Part shown: in pieces, positions 24,462 to 27,056 of the stretch | Numbering within the stretch: the stretch's first letter is position 1 | How the letters are laid out: each line of letters opens with the position of its first letter | Source: Leptospiraceae bacterium | GTDB lineage: Bacteria > Spirochaetota > Leptospiria > Leptospirales > Leptonemataceae | DNA: 64,000 nt | Reading direction: 5' to 3' | Assembly (NCBI GenBank): GCA_040217195.1 | Contig: JAVJNR010000006.1 | Location: forward strand, 64,001 to 128,000 | The notes under the pieces: generated by a model | What the model was told of the DNA's origin: nothing | The model's input: only the letters and a program-made list of their open reading frames with translations | Database searches by the model: none | Made by a program: the position numbers and the translations under genes

Positions 24462-24497
24462 TTTACAGATAAGGGGTCAGGCCTAGACTGACCTCTT
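24462..24497 (+). promoter_or_regulatory. Probable sigma-70 promoter of ssrA overlapped by an inverted repeat
   Basis: TTTACA-N16-TAGACT about 10 nt before the mature 5' end. AAGGGGTCAG-N7-CTGACCTCTT spans the -10. Confidence 0.45.
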
Positions 24498-24499
24498 CA

Positions 24500-24845
24500 G
24501 GGGACGAAAAGGTTTCGACTGCTGTGATTTCGAGATCCAGGTCGCATGCGGAGTTGAGGAGCTTCTTAAAACCTCACCTTATAAGTGCTAACAACGAACA
24601 CGCACTGGCTGCATAATTAATGTGGTCACGCTCCCTGTAGTTTCCCTTCCGGGGCTACAGACGAGTGTCAATTTACGGAAGGTCTGCTAACTTGGTTCGG
24701 ATAGCGATTTAGCAGGAACATACTATTCGAAACGTCAGGTTGTGGTTTGTTGCTGCACCGATGCCTGCCGTAACGAGCAGCGACTAAGCATGTAGTGGCC
24801 TGTTTTTCGCGCCGTAGGACGCGGGTTCGACTCCCGCCGTCTCCA
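24500..24845 (+). ncRNA. ssrA: tmRNA (transfer-messenger RNA)
   Basis: 5' GGGGACGAAAAGGTTTCGAC pairs with 3' CGTCTCCA, with the G3.U alanine identity pair. T-arm GCGGGTTCGACTCCCGC. Tag frame GCT AAC AAC GAA CAC GCA CTG GCT GCA TAA = ANNEHALAA*. Confidence 0.97.
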
Positions 24846-24989
24846 CACTTGCAGGATAAATCTGCCATTGATAACGGCGTCCGTCGCGCTCCGCGAACGA
24901 CTCCCGCCGTCTCCAATTCGCTGCGCTCATTTGTTGGGCCGCCGCCAGGTCGTCGACCACTCCGTGGGCGACTCCCGCCGTCTCCACAG

Positions 24990-25089
24990 CGCAAGTGGGG
25001 GTAGTCGAGCGGCGAAGGCCGCGCCTCCTTGCACGGACTCCGCCGCGCTCGCCCGTCCTGGGCTCGCGTTTCGACCACCCCCACTTGCG
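24990..25089 (-). repeat. Palindromic element A1 (Y-shaped, two GGA loops on minus strand)
   Basis: Terminal IR CGCAAGTGGGGGT(A/G)GTCGA, 18/19 match. Internal hairpins GCCC-AGGAC-GGGC and CCGTGC-AAGGAG-GCGCGG. Confidence 0.85.
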
Positions 25090-25198
25090 GGGGGCCTCGG
25101 GGATGTGGACCTTTATTTGCATTCCCTTTATGGATCTGGTCAAACTGATAGCGAGCAAAGATCCCACTGTTTTGGTAAGGACTAGCCTGATAAAACTA

Positions 25199-25295
25199 GA
25201 CGTTAAACCCGTATCGAGCCACACCCAGGGATGGGTGTAGCCCTGGCTCGGTACAGGGATGTGCCGTGCCAGGGCCGAGATGCGGGTTCAACGTC
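25199..25295 (+). repeat. Palindromic element B1 (Y-shaped, two GGA loops on plus strand)
   Basis: Terminal IR GACGTTAAACCCGTATC / GATGCGGGTTCAACGTC. Hairpins ACACCC-AGGGAT-GGGTGT and GCCCTGGC..CGGTAC-AGGGAT-GTGCCG..GCCAGGGC. Confidence 0.85.
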
Positions 25296-25319
25296 CGGCG
25301 ACTCCCGCCGTCTCCACAG

Positions 25320-25418
25320 CGCAAGTGGGGGTAGCCGAGCGGCGAAGGCCGCGCCTCCGTGGACGGACTCCCACACGCTCGTGCTTCCTGCACTCGCCTT
25401 TCGATCTATCCCATCTGC
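25320..25418 (-). repeat. Palindromic element A2 (second, diverged or chimeric copy of A)
   Basis: First ~39 nt nearly identical to A1. Distal half diverged, with hairpin GTGC-AGGAA-GCAC. Confidence 0.8.
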
Positions 25419-25519
25419 TGGTGTTAATAGCCTCCCTTCTTGTCTAATGATGGCCTGGGTTCGACCGAGCACGGAATAAGACCGTACCTGCTTCGAGCAA
25501 GTTTGTCATTCCAAACATG

Positions 25520-25610
25520 GACGTTGAACCTGTATCGAGCCGCTCCCACGGATGGGAGCAGTCTGTGCTCGGAACAGGGAGGTGCCGCGCGCAGACCGAG
25601 AGGGGCGGGT
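25520..25610 (+). repeat. Palindromic element B2 (second copy of B)
   Basis: GACGTTGAACCTGTATCGAGCC, then GCTCCC-ACGGAT-GGGAGC and GTCTGTGC..CGGAAC-AGGGAG-GTGCCG..GCGCAGAC. Confidence 0.8.
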
Positions 25611-25778
25611 AGGCCCAGTAACAGCATCGAAGGATATCCGCAACTTGCCAACTATTGTGTCCAAAATGCCTTGACAGTAACTTTGAATCCACCTCTTTTC
25701 ATGGGAACCATTCGAGCATCAAATAGTGTTGCGTGCAGTTCTACGCGATCCCATGCAATGCATCGAGGTACTCCATCC

Positions 25779-27056
25779 ATGAACGACATTCAGAAAGAGG
25801 GTATTGAGAAGCAGTTCCGCCAGGAGCTGCTGCGAAAGCTTACTCTTGGTGTCCGTCTGGGGTCAATGCTGATAGTCTTTGCCTTCTTTAGTTTTGCATT
25901 TATTGACAGAGTTTTTGATCCGGCCTACCCGGAACTACTGATGCGAATCCGAATTATACTGGTTTCCCTGGGTATTACGATTTTTCTGCTGAGCTTTGTC
26001 CCGTTATTTCGCAACTACTTGCCCATGCGCTTATTGAGTTTCGTTCTGGTTCTTATATCCGGCGGAGGTGTGGCCGTATTGACGGAGCTTACCGGTGGCT
26101 CCGTTAGTCCCTACTGGGCCATGATTATTGTTACGTTCTTCGGTGCCACATTGCTCTTGAATTTCTCTGTGGCCGGTTCGTTCACAGTCTATCTGCTGGT
26201 GTTCATTTTCTACGATGCCTTGCTAATCTACTCCGGAGAAAAGATAGGGACTATAAGTTTTGTAAGTAGCAATGCAGGTATCCTTCTGTCCATTGTTGTG
26301 AGTGTTACTGGTAGTGGCTATCTGCGCATACTCATGCACAGGGATTTCGAATCGAGGCATAGTCTGAATCGTGCATACGACGAGCTGAGTGGGCTGCACG
26401 AGGAACTCAGGGATGAAAAGGAACAGAGCGAAAGACTTTTGCTCAATGTATTACCCGAGCAAATAGCGGCGAGACTACGATCCAGGCAGGAGATCATTGC
26501 CGATCGATTTGACGAGGTGACTATTTTGTTTGCCGATATTGTGGGATTCACCACCTACTCCGACGGAAAGCCACCCGATGAAATCATTATAGTTCTGAAC
26601 CAGATATTCTCTATCTTTGACGAATTGACTGAAGTGCACAACCTGGAAAAGATCAAGACCGTGGGCGATGCTTACATGGTCGTGGGAGGACTTCCGGAGC
26701 CGAGCACGGACCATGCGCAATCGGTGGCATTGATGGCCCTTGAAATGCTTGCTCAGATACGGGATTTTAACTCTCGCAGCAGATCAGACTTCCATCTTCG
26801 TATTGGTATTAACTCCGGTGAGGCGGTGGCCGGAGTCATTGGAAATAAGAAATTCATATACGATATCTGGGGCGACTCTGTGAATATTGCCAGCCGCATG
26901 GAATCCACCGGCATTCCAGATCGAATACAGATCACAGAATCTACCCGTGCCAGACTGGATCATGATTTCTTGATCGAAGAACGCGGCATTGTGGAAGTGA
27001 AAGGTAAAAGACCCATGCGCACATTTTTCTTAAATGCGCCGCGAATACCCGCCTGA
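25779..27056 (+). CDS. Membrane-bound class III adenylate cyclase
   Basis: About 6 TM helices, SERLLLNVLP, FADIVGFT, EKIKTVGDAYM and YDIWGDSVNIASRMES (the K/D pair indicates ATP specificity). SD GAGGT before ATG 25779. Confidence 0.92.
   Translation: MNDIQKEGIEKQFRQELLRKLTLGVRLGSMLIVFAFFSFAFIDRVFDPAYPELLMRIRIILVSLGITIFLLSFVPLFRNYLPMRLLSFVLVLISGGGVAVLTELTGGSVSPYWAMIIVTFFGATLLLNFSVAGSFTVYLLVFIFYDALLIYSGEKIGTISFVSSNAGILLSIVVSVTGSGYLRILMHRDFESRHSLNRAYDELSGLHEELRDEKEQSERLLLNVLPEQIAARLRSRQEIIADRFDEVTILFADIVGFTTYSDGKPPDEIIIVLNQIFSIFDELTEVHNLEKIKTVGDAYMVVGGLPEPSTDHAQSVALMALEMLAQIRDFNSRSRSDFHLRIGINSGEAVAGVIGNKKFIYDIWGDSVNIASRMESTGIPDRIQITESTRARLDHDFLIEERGIVEVKGKRPMRTFFLNAPRIPA

Follow-up and report, generated by a model that had tools for sequence, protein, structure and literature searches.

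A tandem array of TwoAYGGAY-like cassettes behind the tmRNA gene of a Leptospiraceae bacterium

The region behind the tmRNA gene ssrA in the window, by which we mean the whole 64,000-nucleotide stretch of DNA analysed here, is divided into cassettes by copies of the tmRNA gene end, and the large cassettes carry Y-shaped elements with GGA hairpin loops. Cassette boundaries, the fold and the strand that adopts it, the spread of the family, its fixed polarity and the differences seen among species and inside one population are established below. The family docks at tRNA and tmRNA genes and is likely a mobile variant of the TwoAYGGAY kind. The explanation that we prefer, and which on balance we consider probable, is a tandem array of gene-less TwoAYGGAY-type cassettes behind ssrA, in which an enzyme acting in trans would insert and shuffle the units by recombination at the T-loop. 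We know of no tested function for TwoAYGGAY since 2010, the two standing ideas being a CsrA sponge and a mobile element. Here the cassettes that contain the motif adjoin a single-copy gene and have defined boundaries of an integrase-like kind, in a layout common to two bacterial families.

Layout of the array

An 18-mer of the tmRNA gene end (24828-24845) recurs at 24898, 24969 and 25299, and these are its only further occurrences in the genome of 4.6 Mb. The copies delimit units of 70, 71 and 330 bp and an open last unit, with these features (a dot marks features without an assigned strand):

24462..24489, +, sigma-70-like promoter match (9/12) ahead of ssrA
24500..24846, +, ssrA (tmRNA, tag ANNEHALAA), docking site of the array
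24828..24845, +, native att-like 18-mer, from tmRNA T-loop position 3 to the discriminator base
24846..24915, +, 70-bp mini-cassette, like a collapsed A-type element, with closing 18-mer copy at 24898-24915
24916..24986, +, 71-bp mini-cassette with closing 18-mer copy at 24969-24986
24987..25316,., 330-bp cassette consisting of A1, spacer, B1 and the 18-mer copy at 25299-25316
24987..25091, -, A1, intact Y with a basal stem of 19 bp
25054-25060, -, CAGGACG loop of the A1 short arm, an arm that contains tandem GA pairs
25024-25031, -, CAAGGAGG loop of the A1 long arm
25092..25196,., spacer 1, which varies between sister species
25197..25298, +, B1, intact Y whose two loops, at 25226-25233 and 25254-25261, are both CAGGGATG
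25317..25421, -, A2, mosaic Y made of halves of two variants with mismatched stems; loops CAGGAAG and CACGGAGG
25422..25517,., spacer 2
25518..25619, +, B2, both GGA hairpins present (25547-25554, 25575-25582), outer stem broken, without closing 18-mer
25779..27056, +, adenylate/guanylate cyclase gene, the downstream flank; sister species have another gene after the array

Each large cassette combines one Y antisense to ssrA (A) with one in the sense orientation (B), and the array holds four GGA loops on each strand. In the 330-bp unit A1 and B1 are divergent, and each stem ends no more than 2-3 bases from an 18-mer. Among related genomes (G numbers, G000 being that of the window), the 70-bp mini-cassette, which is the first unit of the window array, is the second in G001, and the 71-bp mini-cassette is the first in G001, G002, G003 and G005 and is missing from G004. 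A consensus scan found neither a sigma-70 match nor a terminator match within the array. Spacer 1 was considered as a decayed GIY-YIG gene and rejected, the overlapping 105-aa frame having no Pfam match. Small hairpins with GNA triloops (GGA, GAA, GCA), a form typical of stable ssDNA hairpins, stand directly before att copies in the window (24940-24968) and in relatives, and covary between species.

Fold and conservation of the elements

The original prediction described four Y-shaped elements with compensatory stem changes, and all eight loops and the three stem pairs that it listed are present in the sequence. A1 and B1 are intact Ys as described (z -8.4 and -8.5, with 0/200 equally stable shuffles each); the other two copies are recombinant. 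A2 and B2 give z values of -1.7 and -1.6, and 11/200 and 14/200 of their shuffles fold as well. The 3' half of A2 is identical to A1 at 43/45 positions, and its 5' half, which agrees with A1 at 43/60, is an 89% match to a half-element in G004. In B2 the 3' arm of the outer stem has been replaced, and the model match is limited to positions 14-91 of the element. The loop sequences of the window copies are AGGAC, AAGGAG, AGGGAT, AGGAA, ACGGAG, ACGGAT and AGGGAG, and the A short arm contains a GA/GA internal loop. Between 24990 and 25610, CANGGANG occurs 7 times, whereas its rate in the window would predict 0.6 (Poisson p 3e-6).

In an alignment of 15 A-type copies from seven genomes the CA(N)GGANG loops are invariant despite a mean identity of 60%; among family copies the first loop is mostly a 5-base AGGAN and the second ANGGAN. 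Pairing reaches 78% in this alignment versus 38-47% in slid controls, and both partners vary in 38 of the 40 base pairs, which greatly exceeds what shuffled and slid controls give, so that the covariation originally claimed is strong. It is nevertheless no proof of an RNA role, because the structure used for pair scoring was taken from one member and because template switching can also produce compensatory-type changes in DNA hairpins. On the GGA strand, G-T outnumbers A-C by 67:7 (77/95 distinct copies scored), and the two loops are spaced 28-30 nt apart in 72/82 two-loop copies; one strand is therefore the folded one. The sense element B1 scores 46.5 bits with the A-type model.

Spread and docking at tRNA and tmRNA genes

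A model built from A (R1) matched 27/42 family genomes, with at least 1 to 81 copies per genome, and it gave 13 copies in the window genome, which together with the strong covariation fits the structured, MITE-like repeat family that had been proposed as one possibility. Nine of the 13 copies in G000 lie in arrays behind tmRNA, tRNA-Ser, tRNA-Val and tRNA-Met, and these make up about 1.2% of the genome. In a sample of the phylum, 6/121 genomes had matches, four of them in genus g22 of a sister family, a figure obtained with a model biased toward the family of the window genome. A pattern scan of genomes returned 3 records, each labelled as a spirochaete MAG, and a metagenome scan with a 15-mer, which was too short, gave one real locus among 119 checked, repeating the G004 array. 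There was no blastn match in phages and plasmids, and viral pattern scans gave 0 matches.

Model matches lie behind the 3' end in 24/30 tRNA and tmRNA loci, and the first element is antisense in all 24, the 30 loci being kin, partly picked by the model and not independent. T-loop duplications, 14-20 bases of the RNA end in length, number 20 copies in 16/30 of the loci; every one starts at T-loop position 3-7 and none further 5', in a search whose core began after the T-loop. They occur at ssrA, tRNA-Ser, tRNA-Asp and tRNA-His and in two families. In genus g22, units of 334-383 bp at ssrA and tRNA-His show the same order of antisense Y, spacer, sense GGA module and duplicated end. Eight loci have a Y without a T-loop duplication, the repeat in tRNA-Met and tRNA-Val arrays is the element's own end rather than the tRNA end, and the tRNA-Asp locus of G000 has 321-bp units with the sense module only. 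In the high-copy genomes G042, G022, G014 and G043 the majority of copies lie away from tRNAs.

Several further arrangements of GGA hairpins were observed. In G022 (L076) and G042 (L106) Ys lie near flagellin genes, a known CsrA target, one about 200 bp upstream in sense orientation and the other downstream in antisense. The window genome contains other tandem arrays of GGA hairpins, mostly sense and directly upstream of genes, that have no R1 match (C8:70903-71215, C8:152101-152272, C8:156729-156954, C6:115171-115566, C10:787761-788107, C10:691488-691836, C5:193606-193914 and C10:52675-52871), and at C1:3371 and C1:44014 a two-GGA module is found within long frames of repeated genes that look toxin-like by inspection. 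Behind tRNA-Asn (L056, C10:274420-274760) there are five tandem hairpin units of about 63 bp that have neither GGA loops nor a duplication of the tRNA end.

Turnover and cargo

From the 42 family genomes 30 ssrA loci were fetched, of which 8 have duplications, and the sets and orders of cassettes differ among G000-G005, G009 and G046. In DNA run X1 one contig joins 25082 to 25416 and so is one unit shorter, and run X3 has other joints; both come from assembled contigs, possibly of close strains. Neither a circle nor a clean empty-site pair within one strain was seen among the assembled contigs. Joints and mosaics fall inside stems.

Genes are present between some of the elements, and two cases point to movement of cargo. 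In G002 and G004 a gene of ~2000 aa is flanked by two Ys, and the corresponding site of G000 lacks it. The tRNA-Met array of the window genome (L052, C7:240-1720) has units of about 250, 166, 168 and 770 bp with a Y at the start of each, and one of its units contains a PIN-domain gene with a small upstream gene, a vapBC-like pair that is also present in a non-tRNA array of G005 (L101). In G043 (L095, L096, L097) arrays of toxin-tip/immunity-like genes contain near-identical Ys at intervals of 1-3.5 kb, many of them in frame; one colicin-D-like domain was seen there and some loops contain tandem (microsatellite) expansions. The gene that follows the ssrA array is a Hen1-like RNA repair methyltransferase in G004 (L060) and G003 (L040) and others in G000, G002 and G005.

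A hypothetical model for movement, and its rivals

No partner enzyme was found: 113 neighbouring frames contained one DDE transposase and no integrase, HUH nuclease or reverse transcriptase. None of the four tyrosine recombinases of G000 is at an array, and its two GIY-YIG genes are far from every model match. The element-bearing G043, G048 and G049 have just two tyrosine recombinases each, probably XerC and XerD. Elsewhere in the window genome (L018, C6:2246-4023) an integron-integrase-like tyrosine recombinase is followed by a site that by inspection looks like attC and by a small gene; this locus is unrelated to the GGA Ys, and no model match lies near the IntI-like gene (C6:2980-4023).

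We propose that a putative cassette circle carrying the segment from T-loop to discriminator base would recombine with ssrA. As with tyrosine-integrase islands, the event would restore ssrA and leave a copy of the gene end stranded. The two Ys, whose 3' feet point toward the att copies, could serve as folded ends or as a mobility signal, and recombination between neighbouring Ys may produce the mosaics, half-elements and 70-bp remnants. If the GGA strand were transcribed, a CsrA dimer could bridge both loops, which would result in loop conservation. The cassette junctions are precise enough for circle PCR and integration assays.

It is conceivable, if unlikely, that there is no dedicated enzyme, and that hairpins beside RNA gene ends change by slippage, template switching or RecA-type exchange with the gene end as homology. 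This would fit with the failure to find a partner enzyme, with the mosaics and the joints inside stems, and with the loop-internal microsatellite expansions in G043, and insertion with long target duplications but without mobility genes is known (PMC2853133). The published cases, however, used a threshold of >30 bp (PMC2853133), whereas the duplications here are short, start within a narrow window of the T-loop and occur at four different RNA genes, and polarity is fixed in 24/24 loci. Far less plausible is retro-mobility, in which a reverse transcriptase would copy RNA of the GGA strand, using the 3' end of the tRNA or tmRNA as primer and the 18-mer as the site where it binds. Such a process would account for the position of the RNA 3' end complement, which on the GGA strand follows the Y immediately on its 3' side, and for the copies of G042, which are sharp at the 3' end and variable on the 5' side, but there is no CCA at the junctions, and RVT_1 was found in only 15/42 genomes and is absent from G000, G002, G004 and G022. 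We give equally little credence to a REP/REPIN family moved by a RAYT (Y1 HUH) transposase. Divergent doublets and dispersed intergenic copies resemble such a family, 17/24 of the copies away from tRNAs are oriented toward the end of a convergent gene (p 0.06, not significant, and dependent on crude ORF calls), and REP arrays adjoin TwoAYGGAY in P. fluorescens SBW25 (bioRxiv 10.64898/2026.09.22.753630). The REP/RAYT form of the original prediction is nonetheless unsupported, since the Y1 transposase (PF01797) is absent from 41/42 genomes, the single match being in an element-free genome. HUH insertion, moreover, is not known to leave a target duplication.

The CsrA question

The original prediction was of a CsrA-titrating RNA that hitch-hikes on ssrA transcription. 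The csrA gene on which this depends is indeed present, downstream of genes that by inspection are flgL-like and fliW-like. As a rival to mobility, the array would be a host CsrA-sponge locus, B being produced from the ssrA precursor and A from an antisense promoter of its own, with the array setting the sponge dose. The CA(N)GGANG motif is invariant in both types of loop, csrA is found in 39/42 genomes, no terminator match separates ssrA from B1, the sense GGA module is retained in the sister family, and in EMSA the CsrA of L. biflexa binds a GGA hexaloop but not an AAA mutant (PMC8668096). Against this, the GGA loops of A1 and A2, like those of the first element in all 24 matched loci, are on the strand opposite to ssrA and its read-through, so that a hitch-hiking sponge can be at most half right, for the B elements, and the spacers have no sigma-70 match from which A might be transcribed. 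Two of the four window copies are broken, and 15/42 genomes have no model match although their csrA is mostly intact. Throughout, csrA stays single while element copies vary from 1 to at least 81, and element copy number does not track it. The fliW-like gene beside csrA is the protein-antagonist arrangement treated in PMC8668096, which also speaks against an RNA sponge. We therefore regard the sponge locus as a rather improbable account of the array.

The strand layout itself provides a clean test of the sponge idea. In RNA runs X8 and X20 the contigs cover tmRNA alone, but DNA contigs break there too, so that the RNA contigs are uninformative on transcription of the array. Under the preferred cassette explanation, CsrA titration from the ssrA locus would be a by-product confined to the sense B elements. 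We are nevertheless quite confident in predicting that CsrA will bind RNA of the GGA strand in vitro, and the invariance of the CsrA-type loops suggests a role as RNA, which a DNA-only mechanism does not need. A CsrA-like ncRNA was predicted earlier in L. biflexa, where the first part of Table S6 leaves it unlabelled and gives tmRNA as inactive (PMC4863578), so that the table was set aside.

Relation to known systems

The elements do not constitute a new family as had been suggested, their architecture being that of the TwoAYGGAY RNA motif, Rfam RF01731 (PMC2864571, PMC4333381, bioRxiv 10.64898/2026.09.22.753630), which has already been proposed as CsrA-binding (PMC4333381) and as mobile-like (bioRxiv 10.64898/2026.09.22.753630). 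A1 and B1 share with it two GGA-loop hairpins on a common basal stem and tandem GA pairs in one arm (PMC4333381), as well as variable copy number and divergent doublets, which account for 68.4% in Pseudomonas (bioRxiv 10.64898/2026.09.22.753630). They differ in that the window copies do not have AYGGAY in both loops, although some relatives do carry it. RF01731 has no match in the window at E<=10, where Rfam searches (gathering, E<=10) returned only tmRNA, tRNA and chance matches, and its best score in the genome is 19.5 bits versus a cut-off of 43; a homologue in G037 reaches 45.5 bits and other homologues 27-39, so that 1/5 genomes tested passes. The window copies are therefore TwoAYGGAY-like and probably related, and are not filed as members. 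The main text of the preprint makes no mention of docking at tRNA or tmRNA genes with T-loop duplications (bioRxiv 10.64898/2026.09.22.753630), and no description of TwoAYGGAY-type cassettes at tRNA ends was found in the literature searched, the coverage of which is incomplete.

Genomic islands moved by tyrosine integrases at T-loop att sites of tRNA genes and ssrA have the same direct repeat from T-loop to 3' end, restored gene and tandem accretion downstream, and attB sites that start in the T-loop are known for island integrases (10.1101/2020.11.02.365908). The cassettes described here are, in contrast, 70-380 bp long, without a tyrosine integrase of their own or adjacent, mostly gene-less, and have folded ends with CsrA-type loops. 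The resemblance to CsrB, RsmY and RsmZ consists in a host with CsrA and in GGA within 5- and 6-base hairpin loops, a pairing that suits a CsrA dimer. In known sponges many sites share a single transcript that has a promoter and a terminator of its own, whereas the present modules have two sites each, lie on opposite strands without a promoter or terminator match of their own, and are unstable between strains. REP/REPIN-RAYT systems and the Ssn repeats and SRM (PMC11893778) are likewise dispersed structured repeats with inverted doublets, but there is no RAYT here and the GIY-YIG genes are distant from the copies; for Ssn repeats, tRNA is unmentioned in the available part of that report (PMC11893778).

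Like integron attC arrays, the arrays described here are tandem units bounded by strand-asymmetric hairpins, with a toxin-antitoxin-like cassette present in different arrays; they differ in lacking an adjacent integrase and, by inspection, a GTTRRRY core, and in having a tRNA or tmRNA end as anchor. A bolder and, in our judgement, improbable extension of the preferred explanation is to see in TwoAYGGAY-type Ys the recombination ends of a hitherto undescribed integron-like cassette system at tRNA and tmRNA 3' ends, in which a host recombinase would act on the folded strand, toxin-antitoxin-type cargo would pass between arrays, and movement would be coupled to the state of the cell through CsrA on the transcribed Y. 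If that reading were true, it would represent a gene-less cassette system that employs a host RNA-binding regulator.
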